DNA of 6,232 bases from a virus (taxonomy: Duplodnaviria > Heunggongvirae > Uroviricota > Caudoviricetes). Both the position numbers and the translations under genes were made by a program. Location of the stretch: positions 1 through 6,232 of IMG/VR virus record IMGVR_UViG_2698536640_000019, one strand, 5' to 3'. The notes beneath the pieces were generated by a model. That model ran no database searches. It saw nothing but the letters and a program-made list of their open reading frames with translations, and was not told the DNA's origin. Shown one piece after another: positions 1 to 6,232 of the stretch. How positions within the stretch are numbered: the first letter of the stretch is position 1; each line of letters starts with the position of its first letter.

Positions 1-174
1 ACGCGGAATATCATAAAAACCGTTACGGTCCGTCAGCACACCGGCATCGACCGCATCACGCAGAAAATAAACCATGGAGGATAGCGGCATATTCATTTTT
101 TCTGCCAGAGAACGACTGGTCAGACGGCCAGAAAAACGCAGCCAGCTTTTAACCCCTTCAAGCACTTTTGCATC
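1..174 (-). CDS. Hypothetical protein, 5' part only (runs off the left edge of the window); possible next gene of the early operon
   Basis: Manual minus-strand translation from the ATG at 174-172 stays open to position 1 (about 58 codons, MQKCFEGVKSWLRFSGRLTSRSLAEKMNMPLSSMVYFLRDAVDAGVLTDRNGFYDIPR). It starts 9 nt after the stop of the upstream 192-aa gene and is co-oriented with the operon. No clear Shine-Dalgarno sequence; it competes with a plus-strand ORF at 74-316. Confidence 0.3.
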
Positions 175-183
175 AATCATGAA

Positions 184-762
184 TTATTCCTCCGTTATTG
201 CGATGAATTCGGAATGCTTGATTGCCATCAATGACGGATGCAGCTTTTCAGGGGAAAAGGCATTATCTGATTCACCGACAGGAATACGAACCACAACAGC
301 CCCTTTGTCGCCATAGAACCCGGCAGAAGAGCACGCCATAACTGTGCGGCCGTTGCTGACACCAAAAACCTCAAAATAGCAGTCCAGTTTATTAACCATC
401 CAGATACTGAATGCCGGAAGCTGTTTTAACTTCTCGTTTAAGATATTCAGTGCTTTGTTCAGTTTTTTTCCCTCTCGGAATCTGCGGTCGGGCTTAACTG
501 AAAATAAAGTACGGCCATCTTCATCAAATTTATCAGACAACACCCGTTTATTTCTTCCGACATCAACATCCTCATGCACCAGTATTGATTTGACAAAAAA
601 ATCCCCACAATACCAGGAACAACAATACCCTCTGGCATTCTGATTACTGAGAAAATCATCAATCAATTTCTGGCGCTCCCTGCCAACACAATCAAGCCAT
701 TCCCTGTGATAATGACGGGAATCGCTCTCATTCATTTTAAAATAACGATATTTTATACTCAT
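184..762 (-). CDS. Hypothetical 192-aa protein downstream of gam, with a CCxxxC cysteine motif (GYCCSWYCGDFF); function unknown
   Basis: Open reading frame from the ORF track. I prefer the internal ATG at 762-760 (MSIKYRYFKM...) because a GAGG lies 6 nt upstream; the track's start at 774 has no Shine-Dalgarno sequence. Stop TAA at 184-186. Co-oriented with gam, 84 nt downstream of it. The DNA looks AT-richer than the A/B genes by eye. No family recognised. Confidence 0.6.
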   Translation of the reverse strand: MSIKYRYFKMNESDSRHYHREWLDCVGRERQKLIDDFLSNQNARGYCCSWYCGDFFVKSILVHEDVDVGRNKRVLSDKFDEDGRTLFSVKPDRRFREGKKLNKALNILNEKLKQLPAFSIWMVNKLDCYFEVFGVSNGRTVMACSSAGFYGDKGAVVVRIPVGESDNAFSPEKLHPSLMAIKHSEFIAITEE

Positions 763-846
763 GATATGCCTCATTCAGGCGCGAGCAGTCCCCTGACGCA
801 AGCGCCATAATTAAAACGATGTGATATTTAAAGATTTAATGCGGTG

Positions 847-1377
847 TTATTTATTCAGTCCGGCGTCCTGTTCAAAAGGCTCGACATGAAAACTTTCAGC
901 GCCTTTATTCACCTTAATACCAGCAATCCCTTTCACCGCATCCGGCTCTGCCAGGACAGCTTGCTTATTCACTTCCTCTTTCGTGCGGATGAAGCGCTCA
1001 AGCCCCATACGACGCAGCATTTCAATCACACCTTCCACATCACGACTGACGCTGCATGATGGATTTCCCAGCCGCCATGACACCGTTCCGGTGGTCAGAT
1101 TGGCAGTTTTGGTTTCGCCGCCGTTCGTCAGCTCATTGCGGTTGGTTTTACACCAGTCATGAATCCCCTTAAAAAGCACTTTGATTTCTTTTTTAAGGTT
1201 TTCAATCTGCGGCGTATAACGGGCGGTGATTTCTGCCACTTCATCATTCATTGCCGTTTCCAGGCGCAGCGCCTCTCGCTGAATATCGCCCAGGGTGCGG
1301 ATATCGCGGCTGACCTCTTCACGGGTCTGCGGTGCCGCCTCTGCTGCGGCCTTTAATTTTGTAACGCGTTTTGCCAT
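847..1377 (-). CDS. gam: Host-nuclease inhibitor protein Gam (Mu Gam / Ku-like double-strand-end binding protein)
   Basis: 176-aa product. From memory it matches Mu Gam (about 174 aa) in motifs such as LQRE..RLET.MND..AEIT, ELTNGG..KTANL.TG.VSWR and RFIRTK.E.NK.A.L.EP.AV.G.AGI.V..G.E.F...PFEQ.AG. ATG at 1377-1375 is preceded by AAGGA; it sits 11 nt downstream of the preceding gene. Confidence 0.9.
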   Translation of the reverse strand: MAKRVTKLKAAAEAAPQTREEVSRDIRTLGDIQREALRLETAMNDEVAEITARYTPQIENLKKEIKVLFKGIHDWCKTNRNELTNGGETKTANLTTGTVSWRLGNPSCSVSRDVEGVIEMLRRMGLERFIRTKEEVNKQAVLAEPDAVKGIAGIKVNKGAESFHVEPFEQDAGLNK

Positions 1378-1388
1378 TTTGTTTTTCC

Positions 1389-1682
1389 TTATTGCAATGT
1401 ATCTGGTGCGTTCTGCAAAGAACGGCGCTCAATGCTGCTTTTCACCCCCATAGCCTGCATGGAACCCTGTAGTTCATCTGTCAGAAACTGAATAATTGTG
1501 GGGCTGTGATATTTAAGAATTTGTGCATAAACATCACAGGGTCCTGCCGGTCTGTTCTCTGTATCACGTTCGATTTTTACCGTGGCAGTAACCCCCTCTG
1601 TGATTTCCTTACTATCATTACCGGCTGGCTTTACTTCATGCATTACGTGGTCAAATTCAAAAATAACGCGTACTTTGCTCAT
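1389..1682 (-). CDS. Small hypothetical protein (97 aa), paralogue of the adjacent 78-aa protein
   Basis: The ORF-track frame is trimmed to the internal ATG at 1682-1680 (MSKVRVIFEFDH...). Its N-terminus matches the neighbouring gene's MSKVVRIIFEYKEH, and the first 30 nt or so are also similar at DNA level. Stop TAA at 1389-1391, 11 nt before the gam start. Confidence 0.6.
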   Translation of the reverse strand: MSKVRVIFEFDHVMHEVKPAGNDSKEITEGVTATVKIERDTENRPAGPCDVYAQILKYHSPTIIQFLTDELQGSMQAMGVKSSIERRSLQNAPDTLQ

Positions 1683-1722
1683 GGAATTACCCCTGCTGAT
1701 TAAATTCATTACCTTTAATAAC

Positions 1723-1959
1723 CTAGGAACTCATGTCCATATCTTTCATGAGCGCACTGGCTTTCATTGCCACAAGTTCAGTAAAGTCTCTGCTTTCCGC
1801 GAGCATAACCACCCCAAAAATCATGGCAGGTCCATCACCTTTCTGCTTTATCCCGGTTGAACGTATGTCCAGACTTACCCCCATGCGCACTGTTCCATCC
1901 GCGTTTTTATGGATAACGTGCTCCTTGTATTCGAAAATAATGCGTACAACTTTACTCAT
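1723..1959 (-). CDS. Small hypothetical protein (78 aa), paralogue of the adjacent 97-aa protein
   Basis: The ORF-track frame (1723-2058) is trimmed to the internal ATG at 1959-1957 (MSKVVRIIFEYKEHVIHK...), which has GAGGACCAGAGG immediately upstream as a Shine-Dalgarno sequence. The longer track start would overlap the upstream 210-aa gene. Stop TAG at 1723-1725. Confidence 0.6.
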   Translation of the reverse strand: MSKVVRIIFEYKEHVIHKNADGTVRMGVSLDIRSTGIKQKGDGPAMIFGVVMLAESRDFTELVAMKASALMKDMDMSS

Positions 1960-2033
1960 CCTCTGGTCCTCGTTTTGTTCGGATAACTGACCCGGCGTCT
2001 GACCTGATGACAGAGCCGAACCATGAAGCAACT

Positions 2034-2666
2034 TCATACTTCCCAGTAAACCGTGCATCCGCTTATACGGGTGGCCTTCACACGGCGGCGCAGGCCGTTG
2101 GTCTTAACGGTGATTTCAATTTCACCGGTTCCCTTAACTTCGTTTACCGGCGGCGTGGTTTTCAGTGCAAAACGTTGCGGGTAGCGTTTGCTGCGCTCCA
2201 GTACCGCACCAGCAAGTTCAGTCAGGCGGCGGGCGTTATTCAGTGAATCAAACAAATTCATAGGGAACTCCGGTTGTATCAGTAATGGATTCATGCGCAA
2301 TGCAGCCAGCTCTGACAGGAAGCCTCGATTAACTTTACCCATCCCCGGAATTTTTCGGGTTTCGCCACGCATGATTGCACGAAGAATGGAGTAACCGTGT
2401 CGCCACCCCTGGCGATAATCATCCATAATCAGAAAACCAAAGCGCAGGCTTTCCCATACATCCACATCAAAGCATTCATGATTAAAACGGCGTCTGATGG
2501 AATCAAGTTGCATGTCTGCATACCACTGATACAGGTCTATATACAGAAAACACACACCATCACCGTCCATCAATTCATAGATATAATCACAAACCTCCCC
2601 GTCATCGACGTTAAACTCACGAAAGCTGTGGAGAACATTGATTTCCTGCTGTATCTGCATTTTCAT
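2034..2666 (-). CDS. Hypothetical 210-aa protein with an acidic, Trp/Tyr-rich N-terminal half and a basic, Arg/Lys-rich C-terminal half; function unknown
   Basis: Open reading frame from the ORF track. ATG at 2666-2664 is preceded by GAGAGG and lies 12 nt downstream of the 73-aa gene stop. By manual count the N-terminal 88 residues or so have about 18 Asp/Glu against about 7 basic residues; the C-terminal half has about 22 Arg/Lys against about 11 acidic. The DNA under the N-half looks AT-rich and under the C-half GC-rich. No family recognised. Confidence 0.65.
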   Translation of the reverse strand: MKMQIQQEINVLHSFREFNVDDGEVCDYIYELMDGDGVCFLYIDLYQWYADMQLDSIRRRFNHECFDVDVWESLRFGFLIMDDYRQGWRHGYSILRAIMRGETRKIPGMGKVNRGFLSELAALRMNPLLIQPEFPMNLFDSLNNARRLTELAGAVLERSKRYPQRFALKTTPPVNEVKGTGEIEITVKTNGLRRRVKATRISGCTVYWEV

Positions 2667-2678
2667 ATAACCTCTCGT

Positions 2679-2900
2679 TTAACTAACCCGTCTTGCACCG
2701 ATAAAGCGACAAATATTGCTGTAAGCTTCTTTCGCACCTTCACGATCAAGTCCTGCCGATATTGCCATTCGGGTGCGATCATTAAATTCAAAGAGTAAAT
2801 CGCCACATTCTTCACTGTCAGACATGGAGACTGCTTTGACGTTATCGAAATTAACCAGGTAAAAGCGTCCGTAAATATCAGGAATATTAAATACAGCCAT
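2679..2900 (-). CDS. Small hypothetical protein (73 aa) immediately downstream of B, in the position occupied by kil in phage Mu
   Basis: ATG at 2900-2898 lies 2 nt after the B stop (TGA-tt-ATG) with AGG upstream. The ORF track extends to a GTG at 2906 that overlaps the B stop. The kil comparison rests on position and size only (Mu Kil is about 74 aa); I cannot confirm sequence similarity from memory. Confidence 0.5.
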   Translation of the reverse strand: MAVFNIPDIYGRFYLVNFDNVKAVSMSDSEECGDLLFEFNDRTRMAISAGLDREGAKEAYSNICRFIGARRVS

Positions 2901-2902
2901 AA

Positions 2903-3835
2903 TCACACCTGCGAGAGTAATTCAGGGTTGGTATAAACCTCTTTAAAGGCCGCATTAATATGTTTTTCTGTCAGCGCCGCGCCTTCACCGCTGGCGGTGA
3001 GCCACGCCTGGTTAAGCGTATGTGTCAGAACGCGTAACGCTCCCGGCTTTTCAGCGATAGCCTGCATGACGGCCAGCTCGGCCTCACCACTGATTCCCCA
3101 TGCCATGGCAATGGCCAGCACATCCGCCTTTTTGGCCTTGCGAAGTTGTTTTGTACGGGCAAGACGGCTGAACAGGCGCGATAAATCATCAAAGGCGCGG
3201 CGTCCACCTTTAAACAATCCGCGCGGGTTACCAATAAGCACCATCCCGATCCCCGTGGCGTCCTGAATTGCCCGGAGTTGCTCCAGACCGTCAATACCAA
3301 GATGATCCGCCTCATCCACAATCACCAGTCCACGCGTTCCCATCAGGCGACGGCGGATGGCGCGGGATAACGCCCCTTTGTTCGCGCGGGTATAATCAAT
3401 CCCCAGCGCATCGGCCAGCTCCAGCAGACACTCCGTGACGCTGGAATGCGCGGGAGACAGGGTGATCATCCAGGTGTTTGGTTGCTCCTGGCAGTAATTA
3501 CGGGCGGTGGCCGTTTTACCCACCCCGGGCACGCCCACTATGACGTTAATACAGCCCATCAGGCGGACCGCCTGAAACAGTGCGCGCAGCTCCTGGACTG
3601 TCTGTGTTTCCACAAACTGCGGCGGCTCCGGCAGAGAAGGCCGCTTTTTCCAGTCTTTGTACCAGGAGCGCATAGTCGCCGCGATAGCATCATTGTCTCC
3701 TTTATATTTCCCCTTGCGGAAAGCCGATAATGTACCGTCGGAAATTCCCGCCTCTCTGGCGATGACATACTGCGTCAGTACGCCGCCATCAATGAGTTCA
3801 TCAATGGTCTTGATTACATCGTTAATATCGGTCAT
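2903..3835 (-). CDS. B: MuB-like transposition ATPase / target DNA activator
   Basis: 310-aa product. From memory it matches Mu B (about 312 aa) in the motifs LPEPP.FVETQTV, the Walker A region G.PGVGKT, WMIT..P, L.E.DEADHLG, LSRA.RRRL.GT.GLVI.DEADHL, AKKADV.AIA.AW and AEKPGALR.L.H.L. ATG at 3835-3833 is preceded by GAGGT. Confidence 0.9.
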   Translation of the reverse strand: MTDINDVIKTIDELIDGGVLTQYVIAREAGISDGTLSAFRKGKYKGDNDAIAATMRSWYKDWKKRPSLPEPPQFVETQTVQELRALFQAVRLMGCINVIVGVPGVGKTATARNYCQEQPNTWMITLSPAHSSVTECLLELADALGIDYTRANKGALSRAIRRRLMGTRGLVIVDEADHLGIDGLEQLRAIQDATGIGMVLIGNPRGLFKGGRRAFDDLSRLFSRLARTKQLRKAKKADVLAIAMAWGISGEAELAVMQAIAEKPGALRVLTHTLNQAWLTASGEGAALTEKHINAAFKEVYTNPELLSQV

Positions 3836-3877
3836 ATTATTACCTCGCGTTTATATAGATACCTTTGTTTAATCAAA

Positions 3878-3910
3878 TAACCTGAGTCGCCCCTCGGGTT
3901 ATTTTTTTAT
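3878..3910 (+). terminator. Candidate intrinsic-terminator-like stem-loop in the A-B intergenic region
   Basis: On the plus strand, taaCCTGAG (3878-3886) pairs with CTCGGGtta (3893-3901) as a 9-bp stem with one U-G wobble and a 6-nt loop (tcgccc), followed by tTTTTTTTaTTT. On the minus (operon) strand the stem is weaker (the wobble becomes a C-A mismatch) and the following U-tract is interrupted. Identified by eye; not energy-evaluated. Confidence 0.3.
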
Positions 3911-3911
3911 T

Positions 3912-5999
3912 TCAGGCCAGCGGATCACTTTCTTTTAATTTCGCTTCGAGCAGTTGCAATCCCCGCTGGAAATTACGCTCGTATTCTTCGTCAGTTTCAT
4001 CATCAGCGACCGGTTGCTGAACGGTCACCGTATTACCCACAGGGCGGTATATATTTTCCAGCCATGGCTCCTGTGGCTTGTGCTCCAGCACGTTGACAAC
4101 CTCATCCTCGGCATCACGGATTTTTTCCTCTGCGCGTTTACGCATACCTTTAAGGCGCTGCTGCTGTTTGTAGTATTCCGCGCTGACCGGGAAGGCTTCG
4201 CGTTTATTGCCGTCCCATACCGCCTCGCAAATCACGCTGCCATCCTGGCGACGCACGGTAATTCGTTCGGCATCATGAATGTCATAGCTGATAAGCACTT
4301 TGCGGCCATGTTCATCACGCAGCTCGGGCGCGTAGTAAATATTATTCAGCCAGCGTATTTCACAGCGTCTTACAGGGCGTTCCACCATCGGCCGGAACAT
4401 GTCCCGCAATTCCACATCGGACAGCCATTCAATTTCCGTGTCCTCTTCTGCCAGGCGTTTTTTTCTGAACTCCGCCGGGCTGTAATGTTTACCGTTCGGC
4501 TTCATGGGTAATTCATCGTGCGGCCGGTTGTTGTACCACTCAACGCCGTCACGAATGGCATCAATCAGTTCAGACCAGGACGGTAAATCACGCATCGCTG
4601 ACTGCTGCCGGGCGTTCAGCCGCTTGCCCTGTTGCAGGGCAGTGAATGCCGAGCGTAAATCGCGGTTGGTTTTGCGTAACGTCTCGCGATCTGCACCTTT
4701 CCCGAAATAGGTGCGGTATTTACGGGCTATGCGCATCGGTAATGTGCGGTTAAGCCGTTCGATAATGCCCCGTCCCTGCGGATTACCGGCAATCCCGGTC
4801 GGGTGATTAATCCCCAGTCGCGGTAGTATCCCCACAACCTCCTTATCCAGGATGTCGGCGGTTTCCCCGGAGCCATTATCCGAGTAATACAGAAACGGTT
4901 TGCCGTGATGTCGAATACCGTGCTGTATGGCACCGGCTACGGCGAAAACATTTTCAGCCAGGTCAAGGCTCCAGCCCACCACAAAGCGTGTACCGCCATC
5001 GATAACAAAGGTTACTTCCGGTGCAAATGGCCGCCCGTGAACCGGGTGCCTGCATTTCAGCTTCATGCCGTGACCGTCACCAATCCAGACATAGTTCACC
5101 GGCATTCTGGACCAGTCGCGGCGCGTGAATCCCTCAAGCTGGCGGTATTCACTGCCGGTCACCCGGCCTTTTTGTTTCACCACTTCCGGCAGTTTCTTCA
5201 TTGCGCGGCGAATGGTGTCATAAGACGGCATGATATCGAGCATATAAGGCTCATCAGCGTGCCGGTGCTGCCATTCAGCGACAAAATCCTCGTAAGCCTC
5301 GGTCATTGGTCGGCCGTTTGACTGGCGATACTGCGCCAGAAATTCGGGCAGCCAGTTAATATCTTCGGCTTTTATTTCCTGGCGCTTACCAGGTGCCAGC
5401 AAAAGCAGGCGTTCAGCGGCGTTCTGCGCCTTGTTAAAGGCTGCAATCCAGCGTTTCAGCGTGATTTCACTCAACGCGCGGCGGTTTCCCTTTTTGGCGT
5501 TCGCCGTCTCAACCATTGCCACAATGCGCTCGTCCAGTTGTGAACGTGCCAGGTTGTCAACGATAAACCGGATAGCCTTCGCGCAGCTGAAACCGGGTTG
5601 TTGCGCGACTTTCAGCACCTCGCTGACGATCGCGATTCGTGCCTCTGCCACTTTACGTTGGTTTTCAGTCAGGGCATTCAGGCGTTCGACCATCAGTTGT
5701 GGTGATCCGCGATATGCCTCCACCGCATCAACCACGACAGGTGAGCGTCTGGCCTTTGTCACCACCGGAGCCGGTGATTCATCGGCTTTTTGCGTCATCA
5801 GTTGCAGGGCGTAGCGTTCACGTAATGCCTGCTGCGTCACTTCAGGTAAACAGTCGATGCTGTATTCAAAACCTTTAGTGCCTTCCTGGCGGCGTCTGCT
5901 GGTTTCGCTGGTTGCATACTTCCTGATTGAATAGCGGACGCCTTGCTCCGTTCCCGGCATTCCCGGTAATCCAACCAGCTCTTTAACTGAAGCAAACAT
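3912..5999 (-). CDS. A: MuA-like DDE transposase (phage Mu transposase A family)
   Basis: 695-aa product. The N-terminus (VKELVGLPGMPGTEQGV...RRQEGTKGFEYSIDCLPEV) resembles the MuA end/enhancer-binding winged-helix domain. A candidate DDE core is present: WIGDGHG, then YYSDNGSG, then GRGIIERLNRTL. It lies directly downstream of ner (TAA-tt-ATG) and upstream of the B homologue, the canonical Mu order. Confidence 0.92.
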   Translation of the reverse strand: MFASVKELVGLPGMPGTEQGVRYSIRKYATSETSRRRQEGTKGFEYSIDCLPEVTQQALRERYALQLMTQKADESPAPVVTKARRSPVVVDAVEAYRGSPQLMVERLNALTENQRKVAEARIAIVSEVLKVAQQPGFSCAKAIRFIVDNLARSQLDERIVAMVETANAKKGNRRALSEITLKRWIAAFNKAQNAAERLLLLAPGKRQEIKAEDINWLPEFLAQYRQSNGRPMTEAYEDFVAEWQHRHADEPYMLDIMPSYDTIRRAMKKLPEVVKQKGRVTGSEYRQLEGFTRRDWSRMPVNYVWIGDGHGMKLKCRHPVHGRPFAPEVTFVIDGGTRFVVGWSLDLAENVFAVAGAIQHGIRHHGKPFLYYSDNGSGETADILDKEVVGILPRLGINHPTGIAGNPQGRGIIERLNRTLPMRIARKYRTYFGKGADRETLRKTNRDLRSAFTALQQGKRLNARQQSAMRDLPSWSELIDAIRDGVEWYNNRPHDELPMKPNGKHYSPAEFRKKRLAEEDTEIEWLSDVELRDMFRPMVERPVRRCEIRWLNNIYYAPELRDEHGRKVLISYDIHDAERITVRRQDGSVICEAVWDGNKREAFPVSAEYYKQQQRLKGMRKRAEEKIRDAEDEVVNVLEHKPQEPWLENIYRPVGNTVTVQQPVADDETDEEYERNFQRGLQLLEAKLKESDPLA

Positions 6000-6001
6000 A
6001 A

Positions 6002-6232
6002 TTACGCGACCTTACGAATGTAGCGGCTGGGCCAAATCTCCTCGGGTGGCACACCCAGGCATTCCGCAATAATCCCCTCATACTTGGGAACATGACGGTA
6101 TACCGCGTTGTACAGGTTATTCTGACCTACACCAGCTTTACGGGCCAGCGCCCTCATACTTCCTTCTCTGGCTCTGACTTCCCCCAAGATTCTTTGAGGA
6201 TGCCAATCAGGCTTAACTTCATTTCTCGCCAT
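6002..6232 (-). CDS. ner: Ner-like DNA-binding transcriptional regulator (Mu Ner family)
   Basis: 76-aa product. From memory it matches Mu Ner (75 aa) in DWH...I.......S...L.R..G.....L.NA..RH.PK.E.IIA..L...PE.IWPSRY. It lies immediately upstream of the transposase gene. The start codon sits exactly at the right window edge, so its promoter and operators are outside the window. Confidence 0.85.
   Translation of the reverse strand: MARNEVKPDWHPQRILGEVRAREGSMRALARKAGVGQNNLYNAVYRHVPKYEGIIAECLGVPPEEIWPSRYIRKVA

Follow-up and report, generated by a model that had tools for sequence, protein, structure and literature searches.

The 6,232-nt window analyzed here, comprising positions 1 to 6,232 of the Caudoviricetes record IMGVR_UViG_2698536640_000019 in IMG/VR, carries an open reading frame (ORF) that runs from position 762 to position 184 on the minus strand, encodes a protein of 192 amino acids and begins 84 nt downstream of gam. 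Profile searches and locus comparisons indicate that this gene is almost certainly a member of a catalogued family, EaC/DUF5420, and that it occupies an exchangeable slot between gam and a homolog of phage Mu gp11. We refer to the version found in the window (184-762, minus strand) as allele A of this post-gam slot. The initial annotation of this stretch, which was made without database searches, had recognized no family for the protein and had suggested that it might bind metal through a compact cysteine cluster; the former view is superseded by the matches described below, and the latter finds no support among the homologs.

Membership in the EaC/DUF5420 family

The window protein scores 49.2 bits with the model of the Pfam family DUF5420 (PF17457), for which the curated gathering cutoff is 26 (E 7e-13; residues 48-189 aligned to positions 44-181 of the 184-position profile), and it aligns end to end with PHROG 2260 (E 3.1e-39; all 192 residues on all 192 profile positions). 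Near-identical copies of the protein are already labelled "DUF5420 family protein" in RefSeq. A HMMER search of 1.84 billion representative proteins returned just 89 clusters at E <= 1e-3, mostly of 170-210 amino acids, and a repetitive 487-amino-acid protein (P0018) was excluded from the relatives as a spurious, repeat-driven match. DUF5420 is matched by 84 of the 88 relatives and phrog_2260 by every one of them. The hallmarks of the family (Y7, F8, P91, R94, G98, K99, F118, S119, G148, P161 and the segment I181-E192) are all present in the window protein.

The same family includes EaC of phage P22, which aligns with the profile of the 88 relatives over 192 columns (hhalign probability 99.8%, E 2e-30). 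In line with this, a tblastn search with a divergent member retrieved the eaC genes of phages P22, L and ST64T, and the eac gene of ST64T is itself annotated as "DUF5420 family protein". Like the window protein, P22 EaC is a single domain of ~180-210 amino acids with the same predicted order of secondary-structure elements; the two share an N-terminal YF and the motifs P..R.KEGK, FS and AG. Their genes also have comparable positions downstream of anti-RecBCD genes, in an early operon and a non-essential region (for eaC, the ea region of the PL operon). On the other hand, the two proteins are only ~17% identical in the profile alignment, EaC belongs to a subfamily ending ...ITYGQFYDI... while that of the window protein ends ...IKHSEFIAITEE, and the host element of EaC is a lambdoid phage instead of a transposable Mu-like one.

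Beyond DUF5420, the window protein has no match in NCBIfam, no match to the Pfam model PF25754 (Gp11_C), and no defense-protein match in PADLOC-DB even at E <= 1, and a sequence search of the Protein Data Bank (PDB) gave a chance-level match only (fibrillarin, E 0.26). Our literature search found no paper mentioning DUF5420, PF17457 or phrog_2260, and the papers that mention P22 eaC report no function for EaC.

The gene is genuinely coding: full-length homologs exist, and the ratio of nonsynonymous to synonymous substitution rates (dN/dS) among close alleles is 0.15-0.6. A Shine-Dalgarno sequence, GAGG (769-772, minus strand), can be read 6 nt upstream of ATG(762), which is also the start in the RefSeq annotation of a 98.6%-identical copy; the alternative upstream ATG(774) is without a Shine-Dalgarno sequence. 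As initially noted, the gene is lower in G+C content than the transposition genes, with 42.1% (43% at third codon positions) compared to 54.2% for A and 55.9% for B; gam has 51.2%. Low G+C content is not unique to it, since the other small early genes are likewise low (41-48%).

Alleles and boundaries of the slot between gam and the gp11 homolog

The upstream neighbor, gam (847-1377, minus strand; PF07352 E 2e-39, phrog_491 E 8e-67), encodes a Mu Gam-like DNA-end-binding inhibitor of host nucleases. Among 46 Mu-like loci from IMG/VR, the DUF5420 gene abuts the gp11 homolog in 45, i.e., in all loci that extend so far, and it follows gam in 37. The main exception to the post-gam position is a Salmonella-type group with ~50% identity (comparison loci L016-L023), in which gam lies farther upstream or was undetected. 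In the E. coli lineage the flanks are nearly invariant (gam 94-99% and the gp11 homolog 92-99% identical), and the gene between them is either 92-99% (allele A) or 22-25% (allele B) identical to the window copy, with no intermediates. Alleles A and B are 24% identical to each other. Among the E. coli Mu-like prophages that have the slot are those of Shiga-toxin-producing strains, and across 5426 complete E. coli genomes we found the flanks in 232, allele A in 9 and allele B in 214.

The slot can also be empty. A prophage of E. coli STEC1585 (L003:2680-2826) has between the same flanks a 14-codon remnant ORF, MKYVYIVINNVVGK followed by a stop codon; this is what an internal deletion has left of a DUF5420 allele, with the start and the Shine-Dalgarno/stop end kept. 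In phage Mu, gam is followed by the same spacer and then by gp11, with no DUF5420 gene, and SfMu carries a DUF5420 gene, named SfMu gp11. This exchange between near-identical flanks, together with the absence of the gene from Mu, supports the earlier suggestion that the gene may be acquired cargo.

SfMu gp11 and the 180-amino-acid allele that is common among related E. coli Mu-like prophages (in strain M1, for example; WP_053264803) lie in the same slot between gam and the Mu gp11 homolog as the window gene, with the same upstream spacer, an identical 12-nt 3′ junction and secondary-structure elements predicted in the same order. They differ from the window protein in having only 24-28% amino-acid identity to it and a wholly different Cys pattern, and in that they scored below E 0.1 against Pfam DUF5420 when scanned singly; P0034, the representative of the strain M1 allele, matches PHROG 2260. 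Mu gp11 (Mup11) resembles the window gene in being the first gene after gam, behind the same conserved spacer, but its sequence is unrelated and it is instead the homolog of the next gene. Of this next gene, the window holds the first 60 codons (1-180, minus strand; phrog_1949 E 5e-29), which encode the N-terminal winged-helix-like part and are cut by the window end. The full-length homolog (L001:5647-6180; also in L002) aligns with Mu gp11 along its whole length, and Mu gp11 carries PF25754 Gp11_C. Unlike the DUF5420 gene, the gp11 homolog with its N-terminal winged-helix-like region and Gp11_C domain is kept in all slot variants.

Upstream, the slot is bounded by the 84-nt gam-distal spacer (763-846, minus strand), which contains an imperfect hairpin, GGCGCTTGCGTCAGGGGACTGCTCGCGCC. 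When the window is aligned with loci of allele B, of the deleted type and of phage Mu, conservation of the spacer extends to ...GCGCCTGAA, after which the sequences diverge. It is present in all four configurations including that of Mu, and is therefore a backbone element and not part of the cargo. The spacer had been described as AT-rich; its stated length is exact, but with 45% G+C compared to 50% for the window its AT-richness is mild only. Its predicted folding is no better than that of shuffled sequence (z -0.10).

At the downstream end, the 12 nt ACGGAGGAATAA (184-195, minus strand) encode the C-terminal T-E-E-stop, provide the next gene with its Shine-Dalgarno sequence (GGAGGA) and mark the 3′ allele-exchange boundary. 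They do not vary among the enterobacterial Mu-like alleles compared (the window, L001, L002, L005 and L007-L052), though the proteins are only 23-50% identical. The gp11 homolog starts 3 nt past the stop codon, with ATG in the window and ATG or GTG across alleles, an arrangement in which translation of the two genes is probably coupled. Mu retains GAGGAATAA upstream of gp11 though it is without a DUF5420 gene; because this sequence still precedes Mu gp11, comparison of the junctions suggests that the gene may have been lost from Mu by an ancestral deletion.

Between window positions 1 and 1500, we detected sigma-70-like promoters on neither strand and, on the coding strand, no terminator-like site. 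Because the gene has no such sites of its own, it would be transcribed from the early promoter along with gam and kept repressed during lysogeny.

Cysteine cluster, predicted fold and evolutionary rate

The cysteine cluster that had attracted attention, CCSWYC (codons 47-52; 607-624, minus strand), is present in the translation, as are the strings HYHREW, LDCVG and MACSS. With six Cys in 192 amino acids, three of them within six residues, and five His, the window allele taken by itself would be compatible with a zinc or Fe-S protein that uses the CCxxxC motif and its other Cys and His residues. However, the cluster lies in the β2-β3 hairpin, the most variable segment of the protein. Among nine allele-A genes that are 92-99% identical, residues 47-52 read CCSWYC, RCSWYC, SYSWYC, CYSWCC or LYFWCC, so that C47 is replaced by R, S or L, C48 by Y, and Y51 by C; a homolog as close as 96% identity has SYSWYC. 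Across the 88 relatives, each Cys or His of the window protein is kept in just 1-23%, and family members contain between 0 and 7 Cys, with none in at least 12 of them. Moreover, no zinc-finger or other metal-binding model was matched by the window protein in Pfam or NCBIfam or by the 88 relatives in Pfam, and the fold search of the PDB returned no metal-binding fold. A metal site at CCxxxC was thus rejected: the reading fails because the Cys residues are not conserved among homologs, the very observation that the initial annotation had named as speaking against it. Metal binding appears effectively refuted for the family, and we consider it most improbable for the window protein.

A model of the window protein built with AlphaFold2 from the 88-sequence alignment reached a predicted local distance difference test (pLDDT) score of 93.8 and a predicted template modeling (pTM) score of 0.85. 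From the N-terminus, it runs through β1 and a long helix (residues 12-40) into four strands, continues with two helices (96-113, 118-125) and four more strands, and ends, after a loop and a short strand, in a C-terminal helix (183-191). The model of allele B (pLDDT 90.5) has the same order of secondary-structure elements as allele A. A search with the window model against solved structures in the PDB gave no match, and the matches in a library of viral models were uncharacterized phage proteins only. We also considered an internal duplication of two alpha+beta halves, which was rejected (hhalign probability below 1%). Neither profile nor fold searches detected a DNA-binding fold or family for the window protein.

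Only four positions, Y7, G98, G148 and P161, are conserved in at least 90% of the family. The conserved positions are mostly structural (Y7, F8, G98, F118, G148 and P161), and further conserved features are a loop or helix-cap motif, P-D-R-R-x-K-E-G-K, and the C-terminal I-K-x-S-E-F-I-A-L-T-E-E. Two subfamilies differ in the C-terminal polar motif, which is IKKSEFIALTEE in one and ITYGQFYDL in the other, the latter including P22 EaC, and no set of polar residues looks catalytic in both. Because of this mostly structural conservation and the lack of a catalytic-looking polar set common to the two subfamilies, the window protein would be a binding protein rather than an enzyme. The isoelectric points (pI) of family members range from 4.5 to 9.7.

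Sequence change is fast and unevenly distributed. In more distant Mu-like phages, the DUF5420 protein is 26-28% identical to that of the window, compared to 55-58% for gam, 66-73% for the gp11 homolog and 42-69% for B. For allele-A copies dN/dS amounts to 0.15-0.6; gam of the same loci has 0.04-0.16, a range taken from pairs among L008-L015 only. Comparison of 11 allele-A sequences (the nine used for residues 47-52 plus L007 and L011) showed that 10 of the 24 variable positions fall within residues 41-58, i.e., in the β2-β3 hairpin with the cysteine cluster, and that the C-terminal 60 residues contain one variable position only. The gene thus appears to be under purifying selection several-fold more relaxed than that on gam, with changes concentrated in one hairpin.

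Distribution, candidate roles and genomic setting

Outside the E. coli Mu-like prophages, family members are found in P22-like and other Salmonella, E. coli and Vibrio phages, in Mu-like phages of Pasteurellaceae and Yersinia, and in an island with an HTH_17 protein, a DNA methylase and a D5-type primase. In a Desulfobotulus integrative element the family gene adjoins AlpA and integrase genes near a DNA ligase gene, in Vibrio phage H188 it comes after an exonuclease/helicase/RNaseH-like block, and in locus L057 it follows a weakly matching beta-clamp-like gene. In P22, eaC lies downstream of erf-abc1-abc2 and immediately upstream of xis, so that in two classical phage settings the family gene comes after anti-RecBCD functions (Mu-like gam; P22 abc1/abc2). 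Inside and opposite P22 eaC (L053:5949-6471), an antisense RNA (aI), a C1-activated promoter and a terminator are annotated; expression of P22 EaC may be regulated by antisense transcription during the establishment of lysogeny.

Plasmids are a further major carrier, with 528 records containing a family member, 495 of them typed as conjugative and mostly from Klebsiella or Raoultella. Here the gene is surrounded by small unknown ORFs, an orphan methyltransferase and toxin-antitoxin genes; one example is the EaC-subfamily homolog of the Klebsiella plasmid pRJA166a (L065:8986-9600), which is 28% identical to P0026. Recurrent neighbors of the family are orphan Mrr_N/N6_N4 methyltransferases and SET-domain genes; a Macro-domain neighbor rests on one weak match. 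A scan of GTDB with a narrow search pattern gave three loci. In a phage-like region of a Candidatus Izemoplasma metagenome-assembled genome (L064:5001-8659), a DUF5420 gene lies in a same-strand run with homologs of the anti-Gabija proteins Gad1 (6084-6407; Pfam Gad1) and Gad2 (7661-8659), a possible anti-defense island. Because the family is common to elements with unrelated strategies of replication, integration and transfer, it more plausibly acts on the host than on any one of these machineries.

Based on these observations, we tentatively propose that the window protein is no enzyme but a binder of a host factor in the early lytic phase, with counter-defense as the likeliest purpose. It would be expressed together with gam in early lytic growth, and its binding to a host factor would most likely serve counter-defense or host takeover. 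A scaffold would be formed by the conserved core together with the C-terminal strand-helix (IKxSEFIALTEE), the variable β2-β3 hairpin and surface would determine target specificity, and the swapping of alleles at conserved junctions would reflect an arms race. The blend of the family and slot assignment with this mechanism is the best explanation overall and may be right. More doubtful, when taken together with all its parts, is the extended proposal for the family, according to which DUF5420/EaC would be a non-enzymatic, host-targeting and most likely counter-defense family with a fold that has no solved counterpart, in which a hypervariable hairpin sets specificity and whole alleles recombine at the gam-distal spacer and ACGGAGGAATAA.

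The likeness to established anti-defense proteins such as Gad1, Gad2, Ocr and Ral is one of working and not of membership. It consists of presumed early expression, dispensability, rapid divergence, allele turnover between conserved anchors and occurrence in both phages and plasmids, and, for Gad1 and Gad2, of the operon that one DUF5420 gene shares with their homologs. None of the four has sequence or fold similarity to the window protein, and in contrast to DNA mimics the DUF5420 family is not consistently acidic, so it is no obvious DNA mimic.

Several points weigh against a role in counter-defense. We found no experiment or paper that links a family member to defense or to another phenotype, and a search of the supplements of the preprint by Silas et al. 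on a large accessory-gene screen, made by text string only and not conclusive, did not yield the family motif. The window protein matches no Pfam family other than DUF5420, and no anti-defense model recurs among the 88 relatives. The Gad1/Gad2 neighborhood is a single locus, and the other neighbors are generic features of the accessory regions of mobile elements. Early accessory slots also hold genes that tune the lysis-lysogeny decision or host physiology. Finally, dN/dS below 1 gives no direct sign of positive selection across the gene.

An alternative is that the protein is an accessory factor in DNA transactions, which would aid recombination, end protection, transposition or integration and excision together with Gam, the gp11 homolog or Xis/Int. 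The recurrent position beside DNA-end and recombination modules in unrelated elements argues for this, i.e., after gam in Mu-like loci, at erf-abc1-abc2/xis in P22, behind the exonuclease block of H188, and close to the integrase, ligase and beta-clamp-like genes of the Desulfobotulus element and L057; the constant adjacency to the gp11 homolog, with junctions that suggest translational coupling, and the conserved basic motif PDRRxKEGK point in the same direction. However, the gene is dispensable, as Mu lacks it and the STEC1585 prophage has lost it with gam and gp11 retained, it occurs along with unrelated replication and integration strategies including those of conjugative plasmids, and its rate of change far exceeds that of the neighboring DNA-handling genes. 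With no DNA-binding fold or family detected and, as the spread of pI values indicates, no consistently basic surface, we regard such a role as unlikely. Lower still do we rank a modulator of phage development or host physiology, which would tune lysis-lysogeny, induction or the host cell cycle in the manner of the genes of the lambdoid exo-xis region. The position equivalent to the non-essential P22 ea ("exo-att") region upstream of xis, the presence of the cell-division inhibitor Kil among the window neighbors, and the excisionase-like HTH_17 genes adjacent in two other elements would fit such a function. No regulatory domain was detected, though, the occurrence in ~500 plasmid records, most of them typed as conjugative, is hard to square with a lysis-lysogeny role, and where deeply divergent alleles replace one another while the backbone stays near-identical, a conflict gene is the more typical case.

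Low G+C content, polymorphism in both presence and allele, and residence on mobile elements that often carry defense genes are also what one would see in a "moron" that protects the lysogen by prophage defense or superinfection exclusion. Such a role is improbable here: the window gene lies inside the early lytic operon, with a junction suggesting translational coupling and with neither a promoter-like site (on either strand) nor a coding-strand terminator-like site around it, and, judging from Mu biology, it should be repressed in the lysogen; the empty PADLOC result likewise speaks against this role.

Every gene of the window lies on the minus strand, and together they represent the early part of a transposable, Mu-like prophage. 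Among deposited DNA, the best match is a "Mu-like phage" that is integrated in Shiga toxin-converting prophages, with 92.8% identity over 94% of the window. Upstream of gam, the window comprises a ner-like gene (6002-6232), the transposase gene A (3912-5999), B with Phage-MuB_C and AAA domains (2903-3835), and several small ORFs. One of the latter (2034-2666; 210 amino acids) ends in 75 residues that correspond to Kil (phrog_2679, E 2e-39), and its first 135 residues are unmatched. The Kil part has an internal start, M136, preceded by GGAG, and is joined to the upstream reading frame without a stop codon; the ORF represents either two nested genes in one frame or a Kil with an N-terminal extension. 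The set of small genes between B and gam (window 1389-2900) differs between otherwise closely related prophages (counterparts at L001:7389-8727, L002:3866-4722 and L003:3367-4882), and this interval is a second variable accessory region.

Taken together, the possible metal-binding novelty suggested for the window gene is not real, and the gene belongs to a catalogued domain of unknown function (DUF) family. Its remaining value lies in a confidently predicted fold without a solved counterpart and in the spread of the family over phages, integrative elements and hundreds of conjugative plasmids. The cassette behavior between conserved anchors is the pattern of known counter-defense genes and makes the gene a reasonable candidate for anti-defense screening, for which alleles A and B and the deleted state on near-identical prophage backbones offer a natural, ready-made comparison. 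A demonstration that the family inhibits a defense system would provide a function for P22 eaC, a gene known for decades without one.

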